From a virus (lineage: Duplodnaviria > Heunggongvirae > Uroviricota > Caudoviricetes): a stretch of DNA of 24,654 nt. Location of the stretch: positions 1 to 24,654 of IMG/VR virus record IMGVR_UViG_3300045988_113752; one strand, 5' to 3'. Below are positions 12,370 to 23,404 of this stretch, in pieces (the stretch's first letter is position 1; every line of letters begins with the position of its first letter). Both the position numbers and the translations under genes were made by a program. The notes beneath the pieces are model-generated. The model was given only the letters and a program-made list of their open reading frames with translations. It had not been told where the DNA came from and made no database searches.

Positions 12370-12933
12370 TTAGCATGATTCAGGGGAAACCCCAATATTA
12401 AATATGAGTGTCTCCCCTGAATCAGCATAATAATGTAATATTATTGACTTACGTTGTTTTCTTGCTTCGTAGAATAAACGCTCTTGCGGCGATAATTTGT
12501 GAAAACTGCCGGATGCACAATATATGTTTTTTAACTTTTCGCGGGTTTCTTTTATTGTATCTTCTGATATGTATTTTAGGTATTTATCCGTATAGATGTT
12601 GCTACTATAAGAAATTAATGTTTTGCTGTTGTTGTGATGTATTGTATTTTTATCGTTGAAGTCTGTATTTTTATTTACTGTCATTAGGTTTTTAATGATT
12701 ACATGTAATACAATAGTCTCCCCATCATCAATTCCATATTTGATGTCATAGTCAGTATATTTATTTGTTATACCGCTTCCTGATAGCGGCACTATGTACT
12801 CTGAGAAAAATGAGTTTGCCGCGTGACTATCAAGAGCAATAGCAGTTTGTTTGTGGTAAAAATAAAACAATATTGAGAGAGTCAAAATAATAGCGACGCC
12901 TAATGCAACCTTTAATATAGATATGGTTTTCAA
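12370..12933 (-). CDS. AT-rich accessory gene: signal-anchored or secreted protein of unknown function (candidate superinfection-exclusion-type moron)
   Basis: The track ORF (12370..12981) starts at TTG with no RBS. An internal TTG at 12933 has a perfect AAGGAG 7 nt upstream and gives N-terminus MKTISILKVALGVAIILTLSILFYFY, a signal peptide or anchor. The region is strongly AT-rich compared with its flanks. Confidence 0.45.
   Translation of the reverse strand: MKTISILKVALGVAIILTLSILFYFYHKQTAIALDSHAANSFFSEYIVPLSGSGITNKYTDYDIKYGIDDGETIVLHVIIKNLMTVNKNTDFNDKNTIHHNNSKTLISYSSNIYTDKYLKYISEDTIKETREKLKNIYCASGSFHKLSPQERLFYEARKQRKSIILHYYADSGETLIFNIGVSPESC
12377..12423. other. 11-bp inverted repeat (gattcagggga ... 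tcccctgaatc) with 25-nt loop, at the junction of convergent genes
   Basis: Perfect inverted repeat read directly from the sequence. It overlaps the 3' end of the minus-strand ORF. Confidence 0.3.
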
Positions 12934-13023
12934 AATATCGCTCCTTGTTGTAACATACATCAGTAATGTGGCGTTTTTCAATTGTATTAAAGACGTGTAA
13001 TATGTACACGCCTTTTGCTCTTC

Positions 13024-13455
13024 CTATTCAGGTATTTCAATTCCAAAACCATCTGCATCCCATGAGTTTTCACAGATGATGTAACCTAGTTCATTGAGCT
13101 TATTAAATGTTTTTTCAAAGATGATCTGGTAATCATTATCTGCAAGTGATTCCAGTTCAAGGTCATTAAGGTTTATATAAAAACTTGTATGTCCAAGTGT
13201 TATTTTCTTATTAATTTCATTAAAGGTTCTTTTGAAAATAATATTTGATATTTCATGTCGTGCATTGTTTGCAATGATTTTTGCTTCATAAGCAGAAATT
13301 ACGTCATCTTCATGAATATCTTTCAGAAAACTGGTGTCAAGACGTTGTACTATTTCAGCGTTCATTGATCGCTTATTGGCTTTTGCAGAAATTTCTATTT
13401 TTTCTTTTACTTCGACGGGAAGTCTGATCCTTAGTTGTGGATCTTCTCTGCTCAT
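13024..13455 (-). CDS. Mnt-like ribbon-helix-helix repressor with ~100-aa C-terminal extension
   Basis: N-terminus MSREDPQLRIRLPVEVKEKIEISAKANKRSMNAEIVQRL resembles P22 Mnt/Arc RHH domains as I recall them. Transcribed divergently from the Arc-like gene. Start chosen at the ATG giving MSRED; the track ORF starts 10 codons upstream. Confidence 0.55.
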   Translation of the reverse strand: MSREDPQLRIRLPVEVKEKIEISAKANKRSMNAEIVQRLDTSFLKDIHEDDVISAYEAKIIANNARHEISNIIFKRTFNEINKKITLGHTSFYINLNDLELESLADNDYQIIFEKTFNKLNELGYIICENSWDADGFGIEIPE

Positions 13456-13575
13456 GTTCTTCACCAAATATTGAGTTACTTGCAATGATTGAAGTATGCC
13501 TCACCGTGTGCTTGACATCAATGACGCACGGTGTGACAATTATTTTGCCCCACGGTGGGGCTAAGGAGATATGAA
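13456..13575. promoter_or_regulatory. Divergent promoter/operator region between the Mnt-like and Arc-like genes
   Basis: TTGACA at 13512-13517 with a weak -10 (gacaat) 17 nt downstream on the plus strand. Inverted half-sites CACCGTG (13502-13508) and CACGGTG (13527-13533) flank the -35; a third CACGGTG lies at 13551-13557. Confidence 0.45.
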
Positions 13576-13743
13576 ATGCAAAAAGCAAAAGAGATGTGTC
13601 AACGACGAGTTCGTTTTCCGGACGATGTGAAGTTAGCTATTGAAAGAAATGGCGAAAAAGAATGCCGAAAGTTCAATACAGAGATTATCTATCAGCTGAG
13701 GAAAGTGTATGGACTCACTGGTGAGAAGAATAGCGTGGCATAA
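13576..13743 (+). CDS. Arc-like ribbon-helix-helix repressor
   Basis: 55 aa from ATG 13576, with taaggag 8 nt upstream. RVRFPDDVKLAIERNGEKECRKFNTEIIYQLRKVY resembles P22 Arc. Directly upstream of the antirepressor gene. Confidence 0.6.
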   Translation: MQKAKEMCQRRVRFPDDVKLAIERNGEKECRKFNTEIIYQLRKVYGLTGEKNSVA

Positions 13744-13814
13744 AACAGCGAAGCCCCACGGTGGCCAGACCGTCAGGGCTTCAGTATCGTAAAACTACGT
13801 ATAGGAATTAACGA
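13742..13814 (-). ncRNA. Candidate sar-like antisense RNA covering the antirepressor RBS/start
   Basis: Minus-strand promoter TTGATA-N17-TATACT (plus coordinates 13849-13844 and 13826-13821) fires antisense across the ant RBS (13802-13805) and ATG (13816). A strong hairpin (13750-13782) is followed on the minus strand by GCUGUUUUA. Predicted length is ~70 nt. Confidence 0.4.
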
Positions 13815-13815
13815 C

Positions 13816-14754
13816 ATGACGAGTATAGCAACAGCAGTATCTACTATCAACGTGCCATTCCACGGCGCAGAGCTTTATGTTGTCAATCACAACGGCGAAC
13901 CGTATACCCCAATGAAACCTATCGTTGAGGGAATGGGGCTAGACTGGAAATCTCAACATAAGAAGATTTCTCAACGCTTCTCGAAGGGTATGGTGGAAAT
14001 CACCATACCTTCTGCCGGTGGGGTGCAAGCCATGATTTGTATGGCTTTACGAAAATTGGCAGCTTGGTTGAACAGCATCAGCCCTAACAAAGTCCGCCCT
14101 GAAATCCGCGACAAGGTAATCCAGTATCAGGAAGAGTGTGACGATGTGCTCTACGAGTACTGGACTAAAGGCCATGTGGTTAACCCACGCAAAGCTAAAA
14201 AGGCGTTGCCGGGTAAAATAACAACTGAACAGCAGGAAGCCATTAAACAACTCGTCATGAGTCGCGGTCAGTCTCTGCCAAAAGAAAAACAGGCTAAGGC
14301 GATGATCACCATGTGGTCGTCACTGAAATCTCATTTTGGCTGTTCGTACAAAGAAATTGGTGAAGATCAATTTGCCGAAGCGTTGTCTCTTGTTGCTCGG
14401 GTTCCGCTTGAAGGGGAGTATCTCCCTGCTGGATCTGCATCAGAGAATGATGAAGTGGCAGTCAAGATGTTAGATGCGCTTCGTGAGGCAATTAAAACAC
14501 AGACAAAATGTTATGGTTATCCACTGAAGCCCGGCTACCGTAGCCTGATTCATTCGCCGTCTGGTGTTCTCGGCCTGACGGAGAACTCACTGCTGATGAA
14601 TCTGCTGAACCAGTTACAGGAAGACGGGCACGATGTATCGGGCGCGGCGGCGGAGCTGACCACCATGTTCTGCTACATCGTCGGTGTGAGCAAATGCCTG
14701 CGTGATATCCAGACGCACGCGGAATACATCAACGACAAGGCAGGGTTCTTCTGA
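13816..14754 (+). CDS. Antirepressor-like protein (Ant-type N-terminal region plus shared C-terminal domain)
   Basis: 312 aa immediately downstream of the Arc-like gene, in the immI-like arrangement. The C-terminal ~78 aa are identical to the C-terminus of the Bro-N protein at 16006..16698. Confidence 0.55.
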   Translation: MTSIATAVSTINVPFHGAELYVVNHNGEPYTPMKPIVEGMGLDWKSQHKKISQRFSKGMVEITIPSAGGVQAMICMALRKLAAWLNSISPNKVRPEIRDKVIQYQEECDDVLYEYWTKGHVVNPRKAKKALPGKITTEQQEAIKQLVMSRGQSLPKEKQAKAMITMWSSLKSHFGCSYKEIGEDQFAEALSLVARVPLEGEYLPAGSASENDEVAVKMLDALREAIKTQTKCYGYPLKPGYRSLIHSPSGVLGLTENSLLMNLLNQLQEDGHDVSGAAAELTTMFCYIVGVSKCLRDIQTHAEYINDKAGFF

Positions 14755-14774
14755 CAGAACGGCGGCACAGGGAC
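14521..14774. repeat. Inverted repeat, left copy (~253 bp, ~97% identical to 15988..16240 in reverse complement)
   Basis: Aligned by hand: about 6 substitutions, all synonymous in the coding part, plus a small indel just after the stop codon. It encodes the shared antirepressor C-terminal domain. Confidence 0.8.
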
Positions 14775-14804
14775 GTGCAAAACGAAACTAGCGTGACATG
14801 TCAC

Positions 14805-14829
14805 AGGCCGCTTTCGCGGCCTTGTTTTT
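14805..14829. terminator. Bidirectional intrinsic terminator (AGGCCGC-tttc-GCGGCCT then TGTTTTT)
   Basis: 7-bp GC-rich stem, TTTC loop and T-run on the plus strand after the ant stop. It sits between convergent genes and is preceded by the perfect palindrome GTGACATGTCAC (14793-14804). Confidence 0.5.
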
Positions 14830-14989
14830 AACGAATGCCACCGCCGCCAGGGCGGGAATCCGCAGAACGCCCACCGCAGCGGGAGCCGTCAGCGGCAGTA
14901 TCGCTGTCGTGCTGACAACGACCGGCAAAGGCCTGAGTTGAAGCTACCAGAGACAACAAAACGAACAGTGCAGCAAATGCTTTTTTCAT
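14828..14989 (-). CDS. Small secreted Cys-containing peptide (hypothetical)
   Basis: Internal ATG at 14989 gives MKKAFAALFVLLSLVASTQAFA, a classic signal peptide, followed by a ~31-aa Gly/Arg/Asp-rich mature part with 2 Cys. The track ORF extends to 15061. Confidence 0.4.
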   Translation of the reverse strand: MKKAFAALFVLLSLVASTQAFAGRCQHDSDTAADGSRCGGRSADSRPGGGGIR

Positions 14990-15082
14990 TGTGAAATTTC
15001 CATCTATAAGCCACCTCAATGTGGCGTCAATGAGTGTAGCACTGACTTTTGTTTCGTCCACAAAAAAGCCCGCAGCGCGGGC

Positions 15083-15631
15083 TTACTTTTCTTCAGGTTT
15101 GTTGTCTTCAGATTTCTTCTTGATGCTTGGTTTTTGTCTAAGAACGAAAATACCAGCCACTGCAACAACTGTACCGATCACTGTGCCAGCTAGAACTTCA
15201 TGACCTGTTAAACCTAATAATGTTGCACAAGCTACTGTAAAAATAGTTGCACTCAGGCCAAACCACTGCCCACGTTTATCTCTATTAATAGCCCCGTCAA
15301 GTGCCTTTTCCTCCATTTTCTGGCGGTGAGCAAACTCCTTCTCCGTCAGCTGGAAGATGCGTTCGGGGGCATCAGGTAAAATATCCTGATACCCGCGAAG
15401 CAGATAGGGGGGAGGAAGCGGACCCTGAAACGCATGGTGAGCGACAACTATCTCCTGAATTTCAGGGCGATCAAGAACTCTTGTGAAGGCATCTGGGTGT
15501 TGAATGATCTCGTTACTTAGCCCTTCCTCAACTTCCTCGAACTCAGTTTCTTCGTTATCACTTGGTTGCCCAATAGATTTTTGCATATTTGTCGAAGGAC
15601 ATTCCTTTAGCTTCTGGTTTTCCTCTTGCAT
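15083..15631 (-). CDS. Membrane protein with acidic N-terminus and two C-terminal TM helices (DUF2335-like by memory)
   Basis: 182-aa ORF with aggga upstream. Contains a PPPYLLRGYQDILPDAPERIF motif and two hydrophobic helices near the C-terminus. Its 5' end overlaps the upstream gene by 74 nt in another frame. Confidence 0.45.
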   Translation of the reverse strand: MQEENQKLKECPSTNMQKSIGQPSDNEETEFEEVEEGLSNEIIQHPDAFTRVLDRPEIQEIVVAHHAFQGPLPPPYLLRGYQDILPDAPERIFQLTEKEFAHRQKMEEKALDGAINRDKRGQWFGLSATIFTVACATLLGLTGHEVLAGTVIGTVVAVAGIFVLRQKPSIKKKSEDNKPEEK

Positions 15632-15884
15632 TTGAGTTTTTCCCTGTCACTATTGCCCATTTTCCGCCAGCAGGCGCTGCAATTTTTTTTCCGTTCTTTA
15701 CTATATATTCAGCATAAACACGATTTTCTGACCGTCTGAGATCGTCTCCGACCATATTCATGTCTCTTGATATAACTTTGACGACAGAGTCTCGGTTTAA
15801 AGCCTTGGCATAGTTGGAGCCAGGAACGATACCCAAAGGGGTGCCAGACTCTATAGCCAGCTCCTTGACATATCTTCTGCTCAT
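15558..15884 (-). CDS. Hypothetical protein (108 aa), basic
   Basis: The track ORF starts at TTG 15899; ATG at 15884 is preceded by GAGG at 5-nt spacing. No recognisable family. Confidence 0.4.
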   Translation of the reverse strand: MSRRYVKELAIESGTPLGIVPGSNYAKALNRDSVVKVISRDMNMVGDDLRRSENRVYAEYIVKNGKKIAAPAGGKWAIVTGKNSNARGKPEAKGMSFDKYAKIYWATK

Positions 15885-15987
15885 ATGAACCTCAACCAAT
15901 CGACTTTACCAATCGGGTAATTTTAAACATGAGTATAATGCTTTTAACTGCAACGAGTGTAAACAATTATTGATAATTGTAGGCACA

Positions 15988-16240
15988 TCCCTGTGCCGCC
16001 GCCCGTCAGAAGAACCCTGCTTTGTCGTTGATGTACTCCGCGTGCGTCTGGATATCACGCAGGCATTTGCTCACACCGACGATGTAGCAGAACATGGTGG
16101 TCAACTCCGCCGCCGCGCCCGATACGTCGTGCCCGTCTTCCTGTAACTGGTTTAGCAGATTCATCAGCAGTGAGTTCTCCGTCAGGCCGAGAACACCAGA
16201 CGGCGAATGAATCAGGCTGCGGTAGCCGGGCTTCAGTGGG
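15988..16240. repeat. Inverted repeat, right copy (partner of 14521..14774)
   Basis: Reverse complement matches the left copy at ~97%. It encodes the C-terminal 78 aa of the Bro-N antirepressor. Confidence 0.8.
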
Positions 16241-16698
16241 GCGCTGTAGGTTTTGTTCTCTACCTTCATTGCCTGCATCACTGCTGATGCTGTGGCGTTG
16301 GCTACCTGGTCGGCAACCATCTTTATGCGTTCTTCCTGCGGGAGCGAGTTTTTAATGTAACTTCCGGTGCGGCGGATCTGAGGAAGAACCTCACCTGTAA
16401 CCCATTCAAGAAATCTGAATGCTCTCGTTCCCTCAGTCATTGCCTCTTTGCAACGCAGAATAAGGATGTAGAGACCTGATTCTGAAACGATGGATAGTTC
16501 TTGTATTCCACCAGGGGTCTGTATTGAATACAGCCCCTTTTTGTTCCAGCCTTTTTTATCAAGTTTTCTCGCTTGTGTAACATCAATATTCAAAGCATTG
16601 CACACATCTTTGGTGACAAACCAAGGTTCTCCGTCAATCATGAACATACGGATCTGGCAGGATGACTCAAAGGAAAAGATGGAAGGTTTGGTATTCAT
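16006..16698 (-). CDS. Bro-N domain antirepressor with shared C-terminal domain
   Basis: Start chosen at ATG 16698 (AAGGTGA 5 nt upstream), giving MNTKPSIFSFESSCQIRMFMIDGEPWFVTKDVCNALNI, a Bro-N/antirepressor N-terminal signature. The C-terminus is identical to the Ant at 13816..14754. Confidence 0.65.
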   Translation of the reverse strand: MNTKPSIFSFESSCQIRMFMIDGEPWFVTKDVCNALNIDVTQARKLDKKGWNKKGLYSIQTPGGIQELSIVSESGLYILILRCKEAMTEGTRAFRFLEWVTGEVLPQIRRTGSYIKNSLPQEERIKMVADQVANATASAVMQAMKVENKTYSAPLKPGYRSLIHSPSGVLGLTENSLLMNLLNQLQEDGHDVSGAAAELTTMFCYIVGVSKCLRDIQTHAEYINDKAGFF

Positions 16699-17011
16699 AG
16701 CGATCACCTTTGTAGTTAGGTTAATCACCACCGCTGAGACCAATCAGATGGTGGTGAACTGTGCAGAGTTGGTCTTACCGGCTACAAAGGAACCCGGCGC
16801 ACCTTTCGGTGCCCCCACACAGCCCACCATAGAATAGGTGCGCTTTACACATAAAAAAACCGCTTATGCGGCATATGTGCCTCTGTAGTAATCCGGGAGA
16901 CCAATCCCGGCACTGGATTTTGCCAGTGCCCGATTACTATGGCACAAGAGGAGTGCAATGTAAATTTACCGAAAAGGTAAATATAAGCACTCCTATTGGT
17001 AATTTCAAAAC

Positions 17012-17269
17012 TTATCTGGTTTGTTTTCGTAATTGTTCGGCACAATAGTCGAGATGTGTTTGCAGATCCTGCATAGACATCTGTGAGCTGGTGACGTAGT
17101 TAATCAGTGCAGTCAGTTCGGCAAGTGGGCCATCGACATTAAATCCATCCTTATCGAGATCCCGGAGTAATTTCATCAAGTGCGATCCCTCCACCAGTGA
17201 CCTGACGCCTCCCGGCGTGTGAATCCTTTCGGTAAATCCCTCTTCCAGTGGATAGTGATACTGCTGCAT
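17012..17269 (-). CDS. Small protein homologous to the antirepressor C-terminal domain, LexA-box controlled
   Basis: 85 aa from the second ATG (17269), which has GGAG 9 nt upstream; the first ATG (17284) has no RBS. YPLEEGFTERIHTPGGVRSLVEGSHLMKLLRDLDKDGFNVDGPLAELTAL aligns with YPLKPGYRSLIHSPSGVLGLTENSLLMNLLNQLQEDGHDVSGAAAELTTM of both antirepressors. Confidence 0.6.
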   Translation of the reverse strand: MQQYHYPLEEGFTERIHTPGGVRSLVEGSHLMKLLRDLDKDGFNVDGPLAELTALINYVTSSQMSMQDLQTHLDYCAEQLRKQTR

Positions 17270-17289
17270 CTTAATCTTCTCCATGCAAT

Positions 17290-17309
17290 AACTGTATATT
17301 TATACAGTA
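17290..17309. promoter_or_regulatory. LexA (SOS) box aACTGTATATTTATACAGTAg
   Basis: Perfect CTGT-N8-ACAG palindrome with all-AT spacer, near-identical to the E. coli LexA consensus TACTGTATATATATACAGTA. It lies 21 nt upstream of the start codon of the minus-strand small gene. Confidence 0.7.
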
Positions 17310-17362: not shown

Positions 17363-17465
17363 ATCTATTCATATTCACAGTCTTTCTATCCATATATGGT
17401 TTTTTGGGTAATAGAATAACCAGATATGCGGCGCAACGGGTGCTGCGACTATCTGGAGATTTAAC

Positions 17466-19766
17466 ATGACGGTCTCAACCGAAGTTGACCACAACGAATA
17501 CACAGGTAACGGCGTTACGACATCATTTCCGTATACCTTCCGTATTTTCAAAAAATCCGACCTGGTTGTTCAGGTGTCTGACCTTAACGGTAACGTTACA
17601 AAACTAGTGCTGGATGCTGGTTATACGGTAACAGGGGCGGGAACTTATAGTGGCGGTGCAGTGGTTCTTCCGTCGCCGCTTGCTGCTGGCTGGCGAATCA
17701 CGATAGAGCGTGTGCTTGATGTGGTGCAGGAGACTGATCTTCGCAATCAGGGAAAATTTTTCCCCGAAGTTCATGAGGATGCATTTGACTACCTGACGAT
17801 GCTGATCCAGCGATGTTTTGGGTGGTTCAGACGTGCATTGATGAAACCATCTTTGCTTGCAAAATATTACGATGCAAAGCAAAACAGAATATCTAACCTT
17901 GCCGATCCATCACTTGAGCAGGACGCTGTAAATAATCGCTCAATGCGTAATTATGTCGATGCTGCAATCGCCGGAGTTATTGGTGGTTTTGGTTGGTTTA
18001 TTCAGTATGGTTCTGGAGCAGTATACCGAACGTTCCAGGATAAGATGAGAGACACCGTTAGTGTTCGCGATTTTGGGGCAAAAGGCGATGGTATAACAGA
18101 TGATACATCTGCATTGATTCTGGCTGCAGAATATGCACGAGAATCATCCAGAACATTACGAGCGGAAGGTAATTTTATTATTACGGAGACATTAAATCTT
18201 CGTAATGTCAGCCTCGAAATGACCAATGCTGTTTTTACCATATCCCACTCAGGGATAGGGGTATTGCTTGGCGGGAATGCATCAAACCCTAACAACCCAA
18301 GACAAAACTTCGGAACGATTATCAGAAATTCTGGTATTTCATCTGAAACGACACCGGATATTCGTATTATCGGGGCAAAAGGGCAGCATATTAACATTGA
18401 GCGTTGCGACTACTTACAGTTATATGCAAACTCTGATGATTCAGTATATGAAACAGATTATTCTATAGCCTACTCAACCTTTAACCTGAAAAAGGTCGAT
18501 ACAATTCATTTTCTTGGTGTAGTTAGAGGTTGGATAAACGAAAACAAGTTTTACCTAAACAGGACAAATAATGTGATTATTGCTGATAATCCGTATTCAC
18601 ATAATCACAACAAGTTTTTTGGTGGAACGATGGAGAATACTGGGGTTATTGACATTCAGCGTGGTAATAATAATCATTTTTACGGACTCCGTTTTGAGCG
18701 CAGACCAGACAACCCAGATGACACACAAAGAATTAATTTTGGTAGTTATACGTGGAATAATTCTGTTCAGGCATCATGGCTTAGCTTTTCTGCATATACC
18801 AATGAACCATATAACCCAAACAATCTTGTAACTGTCACTGATAATGGTAATGGAAATGCTGTATATCATATTCAGGAAGAACTAACTAATGAAGTGTCGC
18901 TTTTTTCAGTGAGTGAGAAAACGCCATTTTTATCAAGCGTTAATATGGGAAGTTCAGATACACCTGATTATGTTACAGATGTAAAAAGTGTGCGAAATTT
19001 AATTCATCTTGTTAATGGTAGTTTTGCTATTGGACGTAACTTCAGGACAATTTGGGAATCAGGTGATATAAGCGTCAGGAATGGCGATGTGTTTGCATTT
19101 ACTTCTGATGTCAGCGCATTCCGCATAAGGGTTTATGGAATTGATGAGAATGGCAGTGTTATTACAAATGAGCCTGAAGGGATTGGTTTTCCAGGGGCTT
19201 CATGGGATGATGAAAACAGTCGTTTTACTACCCAGTCTAACATCGGTAATGCAAAGTTTAGGATAACCGACAAAGGAGGAGTAAAATCAATAAGGGTTGT
19301 CATTCTGTCGGGTGGTAATACATCTGGAATTACCTTCAAATATATCAGATTTACCGGAAGATATTATAAGGATAGTTCTGCGTATCCTCGAAGAAATATG
19401 GATGATCATAATATCCACAGGTCTGGTGCTGTGATGTTTAATTCATCACTTGATGTCAAAATGGAAAATATAGCATCAGGTGTTACCTGTTATGTAAAAG
19501 ATGCATCTGATGTTAAGGTTAATATATTAAGAAATAGATACGTTGTTAAATCGGTGTCCGGGAATACTATATATGTGCGTAACCAGGATGAAATTTCATA
19601 TTCTGGTCCTTATGATGACTTTAAGGTTGCATATACTAGCGGGGCAAAAAATATGATTTCTGATGTTTCAGGAATTTCATCTAATGCAATAAAGTTATCA
19701 GGTAGTGTTCCTTCTGAAATATCAGAAGGAAGCAATATTGATTTGATTAAAATATTAACGAAGTAG
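17466..19766 (+). CDS. Tailspike protein: gp17-like N-terminal anchor plus pectate-lyase-type beta-helix depolymerase domain
   Basis: 766 aa with GGAG RBS. The N-terminal ~150 aa follow the pattern of T7 gp17-type tail fibre N-termini. The central DFGAKGDGITDDTSAL is the hallmark of pectate-lyase-fold tailspikes. The C-terminal half is AT-rich. Confidence 0.8.
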   Translation: MTVSTEVDHNEYTGNGVTTSFPYTFRIFKKSDLVVQVSDLNGNVTKLVLDAGYTVTGAGTYSGGAVVLPSPLAAGWRITIERVLDVVQETDLRNQGKFFPEVHEDAFDYLTMLIQRCFGWFRRALMKPSLLAKYYDAKQNRISNLADPSLEQDAVNNRSMRNYVDAAIAGVIGGFGWFIQYGSGAVYRTFQDKMRDTVSVRDFGAKGDGITDDTSALILAAEYARESSRTLRAEGNFIITETLNLRNVSLEMTNAVFTISHSGIGVLLGGNASNPNNPRQNFGTIIRNSGISSETTPDIRIIGAKGQHINIERCDYLQLYANSDDSVYETDYSIAYSTFNLKKVDTIHFLGVVRGWINENKFYLNRTNNVIIADNPYSHNHNKFFGGTMENTGVIDIQRGNNNHFYGLRFERRPDNPDDTQRINFGSYTWNNSVQASWLSFSAYTNEPYNPNNLVTVTDNGNGNAVYHIQEELTNEVSLFSVSEKTPFLSSVNMGSSDTPDYVTDVKSVRNLIHLVNGSFAIGRNFRTIWESGDISVRNGDVFAFTSDVSAFRIRVYGIDENGSVITNEPEGIGFPGASWDDENSRFTTQSNIGNAKFRITDKGGVKSIRVVILSGGNTSGITFKYIRFTGRYYKDSSAYPRRNMDDHNIHRSGAVMFNSSLDVKMENIASGVTCYVKDASDVKVNILRNRYVVKSVSGNTIYVRNQDEISYSGPYDDFKVAYTSGAKNMISDVSGISSNAIKLSGSVPSEISEGSNIDLIKILTK

Positions 19767-19776
19767 GATTAAATGC

Positions 19777-20091
19777 ATGGAATATAGAACCGGACATTTT
19801 ATTGCAATGGATATAACACCTTTCCTTCATGCGCTTTGTGCTGTGGCCGCACAGATACTGATTGGCCTTTTTACCGGAAACTGGGCTTACGGAGCGATAG
19901 CTGGTTGTACGTTCTTCATTGCGCGTGAACACACCCAGGCAGAATATCGCTGGATTGAAATGTTCGGGCATGGCAAGCGTATGAATATGCCGTGGTGGGG
20001 CGGTTTTGATCCGCGCGTATGGGATGTTGGAAGCCTGTTTGACTTTGTTGTTCCTGTTACTGTTTGTTTTGGTGTTTATTTCTATATTTGA
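19777..20091 (+). CDS. Small hydrophobic membrane protein (hypothetical)
   Basis: 104 aa with aggat 8 nt upstream, starting 11 nt after the tailspike stop. Two to three predicted TM segments and a Trp-rich motif (MPWWGGFDPRVWD). Confidence 0.5.
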   Translation: MEYRTGHFIAMDITPFLHALCAVAAQILIGLFTGNWAYGAIAGCTFFIAREHTQAEYRWIEMFGHGKRMNMPWWGGFDPRVWDVGSLFDFVVPVTVCFGVYFYI

Positions 20092-20313
20092 CTGCTACCG
20101 CGCCATCAAATGGCGCGGAATTCAACTAAGCCTCTATATTTTAAATCATTTCTGTACTGCAATCTCTTCAGAGTTATGTAAAAGGCAAGCCTTATTATCG
20201 ACATGAAAGGAAGGGGATTGACAATGCATGGGTAACAAAAAACCATAAATGGTTTATCATGCGTAATGCCTTTACTATTCAGGAGGTAGTTATGCATATA
20301 AACGGTGGAAAAC

Positions 20314-20718
20314 ATGTCAGCTCAACTAACCAGTGAAACTTTAAATCAGTGGCTTAGCATGAGTTCTCTGGCGGCGGTGATAGCAGGAGTTCCTCCTGAG
20401 GTTGCTTTGGGGGCTTTGGCTGGGGCGGTAATTTTTGTTACCTCTGCGGTAGAGTATCCTATTCGTCGTCGTGTACTCTTGTCGATGCTTAGCTTTCTCT
20501 GCGGCCTTCTTTTTTATAAACCAGCAGCATCAATTCTTATCGGCATAGCCAGCCTGATCCCTACCATCACGCAGGACTCTTTTGAAAAAGGGATTGTTTT
20601 CTCAGCTGGCGCATTCGTGTCAGCAATTGTTGCTGTGCGTATTGGTATATGGCTCTATCACCGTTCCGATAATCCACGCGAGTTAATTCCGGGGAGAAAA
20701 GACGATGGTAACGCATGA
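20314..20718 (+). CDS. Multi-TM membrane protein, first gene of lysis cassette (holin/antiholin candidate)
   Basis: Four hydrophobic segments. The track ORF starts at GTG 20305; ATG 20314 is preferred. Its end overlaps the start of the next membrane-protein gene. Confidence 0.45.
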   Translation: MSAQLTSETLNQWLSMSSLAAVIAGVPPEVALGALAGAVIFVTSAVEYPIRRRVLLSMLSFLCGLLFYKPAASILIGIASLIPTITQDSFEKGIVFSAGAFVSAIVAVRIGIWLYHRSDNPRELIPGRKDDGNA

Positions 20719-21013
20719 GTTTTTTTTGCTTATCACCAATGCAGTTATTTGTACTGGCATAGCAATTCGCGTTGTCACATTCCGGCGTAACGGCTCTCAA
20801 CATCGAAGATGGGGAGGGTGGCTTGCTTATTTCCTTATTGTTGCTGCGGCCAGTATTCCTGTTCGTGTCGTCTATGCAATCTGGTTACGCACGCCAATGG
20901 CTGTGGATTTATCTGAGGTCATTATCAACGCTGTCATGCTTGCCGCGGTTATTAAAACACGCGGTAACGTTGTTCAGATTTTCAAAATATCGAGGTCTAA
21001 ACATGGAGATTAA
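20705..21013 (+). CDS. Holin (putative, three TM segments)
   Basis: 102 aa with GGAG RBS, three hydrophobic helices and a charged C-terminus. Overlaps the endolysin start. Confidence 0.55.
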
Positions 21014-21632
21014 ACAATTCCAGCGAGCTGCTGGTATTAGCGAGGCGCTGGCCGCTCGCTGGTTCTCGCATATAACTTCTGCGATGAAAGAGTTTGGTAT
21101 CAGCAAGGCAGAAGATCAGGCAATGTTTATTGCTCAAGTTGGGCATGAGTCTGGGGGGTTCACCAGGTTGCAGGAGAATTTCAACTACAGCGTTACCGGA
21201 CTGGTGAGCTTTGTCCGGACTGGACGCCTCACCCAGGGACAGGCTAATGCACTGGGGCGCCGCGTTGGTGAACCACCATTGCCACTTGAGCGCCAGCGCG
21301 CGATCGCAAATCTGGTATACAGCAAACGCATGGGTAACAATGCTCCCGGCGATGGCTGGAATTACCGTGGGCGCGGGCTTATCCAGATTACCGGTTTGAA
21401 TAACTATCGTGACTGCGGAAACGGTCTGAAAGTTGACCTGCTGGAGAATCCTGAACTGCTGGCACAGGACGAATACGCGGCTCGTAGCGCGGCCTGGTTC
21501 TTCTCCAGCAAAGGCTGCATGAAGTATACCGGAGATATTGTACGTGTAACTCTGATTATCAATGGTGGCAGGAACGGCATCGACGACCGGCGCGCGCGAT
21601 ACATCACTGCCAGTAAGGTGCTGGCGGTATGA
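21003..21632 (+). CDS. Endolysin, glycoside hydrolase family 19 (chitinase-like lysozyme)
   Basis: Internal ATG of track ORF 20772..21632. [12 protein letters not shown] and [16 protein letters not shown] match the GH19 catalytic signature regions. Confidence 0.8.
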
Positions 21633-22111
21633 TCTGGGCATTCGCAAAAGCATACTGGAAACAGTTGGTTATCATGGCGATGCTTGCTGTTCTGGTCATA
21701 TCAGGAGTTGTCGCCTGGAATGCACACGGCAGTCGCCAGTACGATGCCGGGTATGCTCAGGCGGAAGAAGACCGCAAAGCCGAAGAAGACAAAGTTCGTC
21801 AGCACTACGAACAGGAGAAATCGATCAATGAACGTGAAGCGCAGCAGAGGATCGACCAGGCGCGCAATGATGCTCTTGATGCTGCCGCTCGCGCTGGCCG
21901 GTTGCAGCAACAGCTCGTTGCCATCCGTGAGCAGCTCAGGCACTATAACGCCATTGTCGGCGCTGGGACGTCAGCCGCAGACACCGGAGTTTTGCTTGCC
22001 GACGTGCTCAGTAAATCTCTCGAGAGAAACAGACAACTGGCAGAGTATGCTGACCGGGCAGCCGAAGCCGGAAGAGTCTGTGAAAAACAGTACGACACCC
22101 TGACCAGATAG
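21629..22111 (+). CDS. Rz-like i-spanin
   Basis: Start overlaps the endolysin stop (ATGA). N-terminal TM helix followed by a charged, coiled-coil-like periplasmic domain. Confidence 0.7.
21828..22103 (+). CDS. Rz1-like o-spanin lipoprotein, embedded in Rz in the +1 frame
   Basis: [26 protein letters not shown] has a basic n-region, hydrophobic core and LAGC lipobox. GGAG lies 10 nt upstream. The mature part is Pro/Ser-rich. Confidence 0.6.
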   Translation: MNVKRSRGSTRRAMMLLMLPLALAGCSNSSLPSVSSSGTITPLSALGRQPQTPEFCLPTCSVNLSRETDNWQSMLTGQPKPEESVKNSTTP

Positions 22112-22330: not shown

Positions 22331-22870
22331 TTAATTAAACCAGCTGTCCGATTTGTTCTCTTCTGCTTTGCCCACGCTTTTCATCAGATCGCGACCGCCT
22401 TCAGTCATATTTCTGTTGGCGTCAGCTTCAGATTGCACCACATCGGTTTGCGCAGCTTTGTGCTTCAGTTCCTGATCGATAAATTCGTTTTCTCGCTTAA
22501 CGCGGGCTTCTTCTTTTGCCAGCGCCAGTTTTTGTTTCTGAATCTCTAAGCTGTGTAGCTCATCTTCATAACTTTGATCGCGTTTTTTGTCCGCAGAGGC
22601 TTCGGCGTCCAGTTTATCCTGACGAGCTTTCTTATTTGCTGCTGCCGTTGCCGCTCTTTTGTTAGCGGCGGCCTGGGCATTTGCGCGACGTTGCTTCTCT
22701 TGCTGGATTTCCCTGTTGCGCTCCGCGACCCATTCGTCATGCTGCCTTTGCTCTTCATTTTTACCTTGCTGTTCAGCTTCTGCTACAGCAGAGAGTTGAT
22801 CCTGCAATGATGAGGCGATAGCCGGATAGCTTAAGGAGGCCAAGATGGCGCAAAGAAAAACTTTCTTCAT
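22331..22870 (-). CDS. yfgI: Periplasmic coiled-coil protein, YfgI-like (host gene)
   Basis: 179 aa with signal peptide MKKVFLCAILASLSYPAIA, then a highly charged Gln/Ala/Lys/Glu-rich sequence. Length and neighbourhood match E. coli yfgI as recalled. Confidence 0.5.
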   Translation of the reverse strand: MKKVFLCAILASLSYPAIASSLQDQLSAVAEAEQQGKNEEQRQHDEWVAERNREIQQEKQRRANAQAAANKRAATAAANKKARQDKLDAEASADKKRDQSYEDELHSLEIQKQKLALAKEEARVKRENEFIDQELKHKAAQTDVVQSEADANRNMTEGGRDLMKSVGKAEENKSDSWFN

Positions 22871-22885
22871 GACTCCTCCTGATTA

Positions 22886-23404
22886 TTAGCTCTTTTCAGG
22901 ACATTTAGTATTTGGCTGAATACGCGTTTCGTTATACGTTGTGGTAATAACAACGGCTAAACCTGTCGTAAACTGGCACTCTTTACCCACCTGGGTAGAG
23001 GTATACACTTTGGTGCCTTCCTTATATGTTAAAGAAACACCTTCCACTAAGGTTTTATCATTCACCATAGAACCCGCTGCCGCGCCTACAGCTCCGCCGC
23101 CAACTGCCCCTGCCGTCGTTCCGGAATTGCTGCCAGAACCGACGTTGTGGCCGATAACACCGCCAGCGACTGCGCCAATAAGCGCGCCGAAGGCTTGTGC
23201 GTTCCGTTTATTTTGGGAGTTGTCTACGGCAACTTTTGCGGGAAGAATGGAAATAATATTAACGGTTTTAGTTTCTTGTTTGGTATTCAGTTGATCGGTT
23301 TGATAAACATCGGCGGCATGATCGTCAGCATTTGACTGGCATCCTGCCAGAGTGAATGACGCTAACATTGCCACAGGCAGAAGACATTTTTTAAATTTCA
23401 TCAC
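22886..23404 (-). CDS. yfgH: Outer-membrane lipoprotein with glycine-zipper region, YfgH-like (host gene)
   Basis: 172 aa with LAGC lipobox and a Gly/Ala-rich segment (GALIGAVAGGVIGHNVG...GAVGGGAVGAAAG), similar in architecture to SlyB/Pcp-type lipoproteins. Confidence 0.5.
   Translation of the reverse strand: MMKFKKCLLPVAMLASFTLAGCQSNADDHAADVYQTDQLNTKQETKTVNIISILPAKVAVDNSQNKRNAQAFGALIGAVAGGVIGHNVGSGSNSGTTAGAVGGGAVGAAAGSMVNDKTLVEGVSLTYKEGTKVYTSTQVGKECQFTTGLAVVITTTYNETRIQPNTKCPEKS

Follow-up and report, generated by a model that had tools for sequence, protein, structure and literature searches.

The subject of this work is an immunity region in a 24,654-nucleotide stretch of DNA (the window), which corresponds to positions 1 to 24,654 of the Caudoviricetes record IMGVR_UViG_3300045988_113752. 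The window carries the immunity-I-like region of an Escherichia coli prophage of the epsilon15/phiV10 type (Uetakevirus), bounded by tail genes on one side and by a tailspike gene (17466..19766, + strand) on the other. In this locus a protein module of about 80 residues, homologous to the antirepressor Ant of the Salmonella phage SPC32H, is found three times: once as a stand-alone protein behind a LexA box and twice as the C-terminus of a longer antirepressor. The two fused copies are encoded by inverted repeats, whose arms bear the signatures of purifying selection and of sequence exchange, and among related prophages the inter-arm segment occurs in either orientation. Based on these observations, we consider it probable that a single repressor-disabling module is present here in three copies under three controls and acts on the resident repressor (Rep), and that the arms recombine and flip the cassette between them.

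The identity of the module is clearest in the stand-alone copy. The open reading frame (ORF) spans 17012-17284 (- strand, 90 amino acids), and the protein has 85 amino acids (17012..17269) when translation begins at the ATG at 17269, as in the annotation of relatives. It is the orthologue of SPC32H Ant and of epsilon15 gp19, and matches chain E of PDB 5D50, named "Anti-repressor protein", over its full length (E 1.7e-47, ~88% identity); 5D50 is the crystallised Rep-Ant complex of the Salmonella phage SPC32H. Residues 231-307 of the long Ant of the window match the same chain with an E of 7e-14. No Pfam family matches the module in a scan of the locus proteins. PHROG 450, which carries the label 'unknown function', matches both the small ORF (E 1e-47) and the domain encoded in the repeat arms, hereafter the arm-type domain (E 1.9e-36). 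The stand-alone copy and the arm-type domain are 39% identical in a multiple alignment and 43-44% identical by tblastn, in agreement with the ~40% that a preliminary description of this DNA had given for a third, diverged copy. The same description had put the module forward as a candidate repressor-binding domain, and the homology of the fused copy to 5D50 chain E supports this assignment well. According to PMC9638917, a secondary source, SPC32H Ant is a small helical protein whose tetramer binds two repressor dimers and breaks the DNA-bound repressor tetramer. By homology, the fused copies would be expected to bind a repressor as well.

The module family is small and narrow, with 62 hits in a profile search of 1.84 billion representative proteins. 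Most of these hits are stand-alone proteins of 80-95 amino acids. Fused proteins invariably carry the module at their very C-terminal end, after an AntA, Bro-N, Phage_pRha, or ORF6N domain, to which the window adds P22_AR_N. One metagenomic protein of 84 amino acids (P0012) looks chimeric, since its N-terminal third is small-Ant-like (QQYHHPLEDGFTERIHTPAGVRSL) and the remainder is arm-type-like (DGHDVSGAAAELTTMLCYIAGVSKCLREIETH).

The first long antirepressor, Ant (13816..14754, + strand, 312 amino acids), starts with a P22_AR_N domain (PF10547, residues 12-121, E 5.9e-45), followed by a middle part that resembles P22-type Ant and by the SPC32H-Ant-like C-terminus. P22_AR_C has no match in this protein in the Pfam scan, and the Ant profiles PHROG 524 and PHROG 245 are matched only to about position 221-229 of their 317-319 positions. 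The SPC32H-Ant-like domain thus stands in the place of P22_AR_C. The second long antirepressor (16006..16698, - strand, 230 amino acids from its ATG) joins a Bro-N domain (PF02498, E 2.2e-13, residues 31-121 of the 245-amino-acid ORF obtained with the extended start TTG at 16743) to the same kind of C-terminus. This Bro-N protein is 80% identical to ORF4 of phage vB_EcoP_ZX5, and the C-terminal halves are nearly identical. ZX5 ORF4, an 'anti-repressor' composed of Bro-N and this domain, reduced lysogens from 1e9 to 1e6 when overexpressed (PMC9782041). A Bro-N-type fusion of this kind is already included in PHROG 1760, 'anti-repressor'. In phiV10, the Bro-N gene is frameshifted within the Ant-like domain (L014 4065-4279; phiV10 19554-19783), where tblastn gives two matches in different frames; the phiV10 record has a 194-amino-acid Bro-N protein and a 29-amino-acid ORF at this place, which is either a pseudogene or a sequencing error.

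The stand-alone gene is set apart by its putative control. A perfect LexA box of the form CTGT-N8-ACAG with an AT-rich centre (CTGTATATTTATACAG) occupies 17292-17307, placed 37 nt upstream of the small ant ATG (17269). Of 88 related loci, 87 have a LexA box at -37/-38 relative to small ant, and the earlier proposal that the 85-amino-acid ORF is LexA-controlled is consistent with this conservation. A second LexA-like box (CTGTGAATATGAATAG, - strand) with one mismatch lies at 17365-17380, ~110 nt upstream of small ant, and is perfect in two related loci. The LexA scan gave no credible box upstream of the Bro-N gene (16698) or of ant (13816). LexA control of the Bro-N gene was considered and rejected, as the sole near-match in its vicinity (16807-16822) is GC-rich. 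Read in this way, the fused copies are homologues of the LexA-controlled Ant that are placed under different control.

The two fused copies are far more alike than either is to the stand-alone one, as the final 78 amino acids of Ant and of the Bro-N protein are identical. The two long genes converge and share their 3' module, and therefore their 3' ends form inverted repeats. A repeat search places these at 14486-14755 and 16005-16274 (270 nt, 92% identity), and a gapped alignment gives a high-identity core of 258/257 nt at 14521-14778 versus 16239-15983. Arm A (14521..14778, + strand) consists of the final 78 codons of ant and 24 nt past the stop codon, and arm B (15983..16239, - strand) of the final 78 codons of the Bro-N gene and 23 nt past the stop codon. 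The 234 coding nucleotides of the arms differ by six substitutions, all of them synonymous transitions, and the 24 nt beyond the stop codons hold three more substitutions and one 1-nt indel. The chance that six of six substitutions are synonymous is 1.9e-4 if all changes are equally likely and 2.5e-3 if only transitions are allowed. The preliminary description had reported the identical ~78 C-terminal residues and repeats of ~253 bp with about six synonymous substitutions; direct comparison bears out both, with coordinates that were right to within a few bases. Since the similarity of the arms continues beyond the stop codons, it points to an origin of the arms by duplication at the DNA level.

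Comparison with related loci shows that the likeness of the arms has been maintained. In the first 14 loci, 40 of 234 arm sites are variable, 34 of which change synonymous codons only, and the ratio of nonsynonymous to synonymous polymorphism (pN/pS) of the arms is 0.034. Sixteen sites are polymorphic in both arms in this set, and no difference is fixed between the arms. The same holds for 37 distinct arm pairs, with 52 variable sites, 31 shared polymorphisms, and zero fixed differences. Among doubleton sites, four of nine are found on both arms of one locus (L011, L017), compared with 1.4% expected by chance. Arms of the same locus differ at 8.8 sites on average and arms of different loci at 9.4 (permutation P = 0.017). 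Taken together, these data indicate strong purifying selection on the arms and repeated sequence exchange between them. Some of this exchange occurs within a genome, because private variants have been copied onto both arms, and much of it is probably due to recombination in the phage population. The preliminary description had left the choice between purifying selection and recent gene conversion; a pN/pS of ~0.03, the shared polymorphisms, and the rare variants on both arms of one locus indicate purifying selection together with exchange between the arms.

The three-copy layout is not peculiar to the window. The order Mnt, Arc, Ant with the fused domain, a 53-amino-acid gene, cargo, a second long gene with the fused domain, small ant, and tailspike is found in phage TL-2011b and in 13 of 13 sampled complete E. 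coli genomes, which come from different hosts and continents. The preliminary description had called for a check of related prophages for the duplication, which is thus present there. An arm with the adjoining 53-amino-acid gene is found in 537 of 5426 complete E. coli genomes (~10%). The arms are 97-100% identical at the protein level across the sampled loci, while the N-terminal domain of the second long gene varies and can be a Bro-N variant (62-100% identity), AntA/AntB, or ORF6N. Single-arm phages (phiV10, ZX5, and many IMG/VR contigs) carry small ant, the Bro-N gene with its fused domain, cargo, and the 53-amino-acid gene on one strand, which suggests that this one-strand, single-arm layout is the ancestral operon.

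Some loci depart from these layouts. On an IMG/VR contig (L026 4516-5081), small ant follows the fused Ant gene after ~80 nt, and the cargo and the second long antirepressor gene are absent; this is a two-copy deletion variant. In E. coli CE0007a (L093, 4741-6255), an AntA-type gene takes the position proximal to small ant, and the window-type Bro-N gene with its fused domain lies distal to small ant, beside a truncated and oppositely oriented P22_AR_N pseudogene. This arrangement points to further rearrangement besides simple inversion.

The segment between the arms (14755-16005 in the window) and its equivalents in L001-L013, L093, and L094 form a variable slot for accessory genes, which can hold a DUF2335 membrane protein, a YafO-family toxin, a DUF4760 protein, a 633-nt hypothetical gene, and others. 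The 53-amino-acid gene is always at one end of this slot and is 98-100% conserved across most loci. In the complete genome of E. coli SCU-387 (L094), the flanks are the same as in L008, L010, and L012 and the inter-arm segment is reversed, which makes this comparison the clean case of inversion. L094 3396-4973 aligns in reverse to L012 4602-3022 at 98.3% identity, and both flanks are colinear. This places the breakpoints of the inversion within the arms. The terminator-like hairpin found 3' of ant in the window (14805-14822, + strand) has changed to the minus strand in L094 and comes immediately behind the second antirepressor gene there. In either orientation, one antirepressor gene would thus be terminated and the other would read into the cargo.

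The inverted state was also sought in complete genomes with a query for the inverted junction, in which the 53-amino-acid gene is followed by the arm, an AntA-type gene, and small ant. The query ranked 938 records among complete genomes, and the ranking was sampled in even steps of ~24, with a coverage of 100% in rows 1 and 2 and of 85% in the next row. The inverted state is found in at least about 24 complete genomes, many of which may be clonal. Orientation could be scored in 34 sampled two-arm loci, of which 32 have the normal arrangement and two the inverted one, in a sample biased to colinear matches. Inversion of the segment appears to be a polymorphism of the population and not a demonstrated programmed switch. 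Two IMG/VR draft contigs (L016, L041) also look inverted, which is weak evidence since short-read assemblers cannot orient a segment between near-identical repeats. Twelve genomes matched by a synthetic query that joined the 53-amino-acid gene, arm B, and the window-type Bro-N gene were not counted as inversions, as L093 shows that this junction arises otherwise. A scan with Pfam and PHROG of ORFs from the tail gene to the tailspike (12370-17284) found no recombinase domain, so that the most likely agent of the inversion is homologous recombination, either general or encoded by the phage and of the RecT type. TL-2011b encodes RecT and exonuclease VIII.

The window shows no repressor candidate beyond the lysis genes, which end at ~22.1 kb, but relatives encode the presumed target of the module. 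A protein homologous to SPC32H Rep over its full length is encoded by TL-2011b, where the three copies are arranged identically; this protein (gp10) matches chain A of 5D50 with an E of 6.6e-42. This Rep is 98.5-100% identical in phiV10 and ZX5 (98.5% in ZX5). In a set of 50,697 phage records, the module is present in 34 and an SPC32H-type Rep in 37, and the two groups agree in host genera and, for the most part, in the named phages. The module occurs once in the Salmonella phages, twice in most E. coli, Klebsiella, and Enterobacter phages, and three times in TL-2011b and HEMP4. The small Ant of the window (17012-17269) is ~88% identical to SPC32H Ant, yet the Rep of the E. coli group (L095 5306-5890) is only ~45-50% identical to the Rep of SPC32H and epsilon15. 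The small Ant is thus oddly more conserved between E. coli and Salmonella phages than Rep, its presumed target.

In the explanation that we propose, each copy of the module would deliver a different input. The copy that stands alone behind the LexA box would respond to the SOS signal; another, as the C-terminus of the P22-type Ant, would belong to an operon regulated by Mnt and Arc; the last, as the C-terminus of the Bro-N protein, would be expressed from an uncharacterised promoter of its own. All three would most likely act on the resident SPC32H-type repressor. The likeness of the arms would be kept by purifying selection on the protein and by recurrent recombination or gene conversion between them, and the same recombination would invert or exchange the accessory cassette. 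As the terminator would flip along with it, one antirepressor gene would always read through into the cargo and the other would always be terminated.

Several observations weigh against this explanation. With the characterised Ant, the arm-type domain shares only 39-44% identity, and its specificity could differ. The repressor of this prophage lies outside the window, and Rep is seen in relatives only. The similarity of two arms is only marginally higher within a locus than between loci (8.8 versus 9.4 differences), and much of the exchange may be between phages. The promoter and terminator calls are consensus matches only. The first of these points leads to the main rival, which we regard as unlikely, namely that the arm-type domain is an antirepressor against a different, heteroimmune repressor and that the small Ant alone acts on its own Rep. 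Such an anti-immunity or cross-talk role is thought to apply to P22 Ant and the Gifsy antirepressors, and antirepressor cross-talk between prophages is established (Lemire 2011, as cited in PMC7380047). This reading is favoured by the two subfamilies being 39-44% identical to each other and yet each 96-100% conserved across the E. coli loci. Klebsiella and Raoultella have stand-alone arm-type proteins of ~95 amino acids that may serve there as the primary Ant, and the Klebsiella phages with arm-like copies have a Rep that is only 45% identical to the E. coli Rep. The unequal conservation of small Ant (~88%) and Rep (~45-50%) between E. coli and Salmonella phages can be counted on the same side. 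However, ZX5 ORF4, which joins Bro-N to the arm-type domain, cut the lysogeny of its own phage, and the ZX5 Rep is 98.5% identical to that of TL-2011b. A further point against this rival is that, among phage records, the domain family is confined to the SPC32H-type Rep group.

Two other readings are weak. The module of the long proteins could serve only to oligomerise (tetramerise) their DNA-binding-like Bro-N or P22_AR_N domains, with the antirepressor activity elsewhere in the protein. A tetrameric SPC32H Ant (PMC9638917), the putative long-helix fold of the module, its constant position C-terminal to KilA-N/Bro-N-like domains, and the unknown function of the Bro-N domain (PMC9782041) would all fit such a role. 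In SPC32H, however, one protein of 86 amino acids both tetramerises and binds Rep (5D50), and the sharing of one C-terminus by five unrelated N-terminal families, in a family that tracks Rep, fits a repressor-binding module better than a generic oligomeriser. We therefore hold a purely oligomerising role to be quite improbable. More improbable still, to the point of being negligible, is that the repeat arose by recent neutral duplication or through misassembly and has no function. In favour of such a reading are the near identity of the two arms in the window and the difficulty that repeats of 258 nt can cause in short-read assembly. Against this, the same layout is present in TL-2011b and 13 complete genomes, and an arm with the 53-amino-acid gene in 537 of 5426 complete E. 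coli genomes; the preliminary description had itself raised the prospect of an artefact, which is contradicted by a layout that recurs in TL-2011b and in dozens of complete E. coli genomes. The 52 variable sites and a pN/pS of 0.03 indicate old, selected copies and not a recent neutral duplicate. Both the artefact and the recent neutral duplication have been rejected on this recurrence in relatives and on the variation of the arms.

A more far-reaching form of the proposed explanation can also be entertained, although we consider it rather doubtful. The inverted repeats could be a selected recombination scaffold that makes a recombinase-free slot for inversion and exchange, in which the cargo, because the terminator flips with it, would come under the ant operon with its Mnt/Arc control in one state and under the Bro-N operon in the other. 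Mixed tetramers of the three paralogues could, in addition, integrate the SOS and immunity-I signals on one repressor.

The SPC32H Ant/Rep system was reportedly described by Kim and Ryu in 2013 and by Kim et al. in 2016. The window resembles SPC32H and epsilon15 in its stand-alone copy, which is orthologous to SPC32H Ant and epsilon15 gp19 (~88%), takes the corresponding place immediately upstream of the tailspike gene, is preceded by a LexA box, and is accompanied in relatives by an SPC32H-type Rep. Both fused copies are in addition full-length homologues of the ~80-residue SPC32H protein. On the other hand, the Salmonella phages have one copy, compared with three here, of which two are C-terminal fusions without a LexA box, and identity between the Rep proteins of the E. 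coli group and the Salmonella phages reaches only ~45-50%. The immunity-I region of P22 (mnt-arc-ant) shares with the window a divergent Mnt-like gene of the Arc family, a small arc-like gene, an ant gene with P22_AR_N, and the location between tail or ejection genes and the tailspike. Here, however, P22_AR_C is replaced by the SPC32H-Ant-like domain, and the resident repressor, as seen in relatives, is of the SPC32H type and not c2-like.

Modular antirepressors with Bro-N, KilA-N, AntA, ORF6N, or Rha domains likewise combine a Bro-N-like N-terminal domain with an exchangeable C-terminus, and five N-terminal families are involved here. Domain shuffling in the Bro-N/KilA-N group was reportedly treated by Iyer et al. 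in 2002. The present case differs in that a repressor-binding protein of known structure can be recognised as the C-terminal partner. With the Hin, Gin, and Cin systems and the shufflons, the locus has in common a repeat-flanked segment found in both orientations, whose flip would change the promoter that reads the enclosed genes. The repeats here are 258-nt protein-coding 3' ends and not short crossover sites, and the locus ORFs scanned here contain no recombinase domain. Inverted repeats homogenised by gene conversion are a further system with which the arms can be compared.

The stand-alone Ant and its mechanism, the P22-type immunity-I region, and the Bro-N antirepressors with their domain shuffling are already known, and the present analysis is a modest refinement of known phage antirepressor biology. 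A literature search found no description of the C-termini of the long antirepressors as SPC32H-Ant homologues, of the layout with three copies and three controls, of the concerted evolution of convergent 3' ends, or of a recombinase-free invertible cassette of accessory genes. The homology puts a name to the likely active part of common and poorly understood antirepressors (Bro-N, AntA, ORF6N, Rha, and P22_AR_N) of E. coli Uetakevirus prophages. It also gives a handle for testing whether one repressor is switched off through several independently regulated inputs. The arms, in turn, offer a clear natural example of protein-coding inverted repeats that undergo concerted evolution and would drive the inversion and exchange of accessory genes, including toxin genes, in prophages.

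The remaining features of the locus are in line with an immunity-I-like organisation. The Mnt-like repressor (13024..13485, - strand, 153 amino acids) has an N-terminal ribbon-helix-helix domain of the Arc type (Pfam Arc PF03869, E 1.2e-14), is annotated in relatives as 'Arc family DNA-binding protein', and is encoded divergently from the arc-ant operon. The small Arc-like protein (13555..13743, + strand) has 62 amino acids, or 55 in the RefSeq records of relatives; it matches PHROG 228, 'Arc-like repressor', with an E of 1.8e-5 and is annotated as an Arc-like repressor in TL-2011b. A consensus scan and direct reading place a promoter-like site (TTGACA-17-GACAAT with a TG) upstream of arc-ant at 13512..13540 (+ strand), and this site is probably the counterpart of the P22 Pant promoter and its operator. 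A palindrome, CACCGTG...CACGGTG, overlaps the -35 of this site, which is followed by CCCCACGGTGGGG (13512-13560); both the palindrome and CCCCACGGTGGGG are candidate operators for Mnt and Arc.

Just 3' of ant and within the invertible segment lies the terminator-like hairpin AGGCCGCTTTCGCGGCCT, followed by TGTTTTT (14805..14822, + strand). The adjacent 53-amino-acid protein (14828..14989, - strand) has a signal-peptide-like N-terminus and matches PHROG 14503, 'membrane associated protein' (E 2.3e-40). A bidirectional terminator-like hairpin (15066..15084) separates its gene from that of the DUF2335 membrane protein (15083..15631, - strand; Pfam DUF2335, E 1.6e-15). The second variable cargo gene (15558..15899, - strand) is a 113-amino-acid ORF, or 108 amino acids in RefSeq relatives, and encodes a hypothetical protein that is annotated in relatives and matches PHROG 10654, of unknown function. 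Between the small ant and Bro-N genes, a terminator-like hairpin is followed by a T run (16859..16872, - strand), and a 'putative rho-independent terminator' is annotated at the equivalent place in phiV10. Two promoter-like sites on the minus strand (16936-17008) lie just past the small ant stop codon and upstream of this hairpin; they would yield a short transcript only, and may serve either the Bro-N gene or a small RNA.

Beside the locus, the first 145 amino acids of the tailspike are 67-100% identical across the loci, and the annotated products are diverse (endosialidase, GH28, SGNH hydrolase). This variation is the usual swapping of receptor-binding modules. Lysis genes (holins, endolysin, and Rz) are found at ~19777-22111. 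Past these genes, at 22331-23404 on the minus strand, the window encodes a DUF5384-like coiled-coil protein and a glycine-rich lipoprotein-like protein, and the TL-2011b record holds equivalents of these genes inside the phage.

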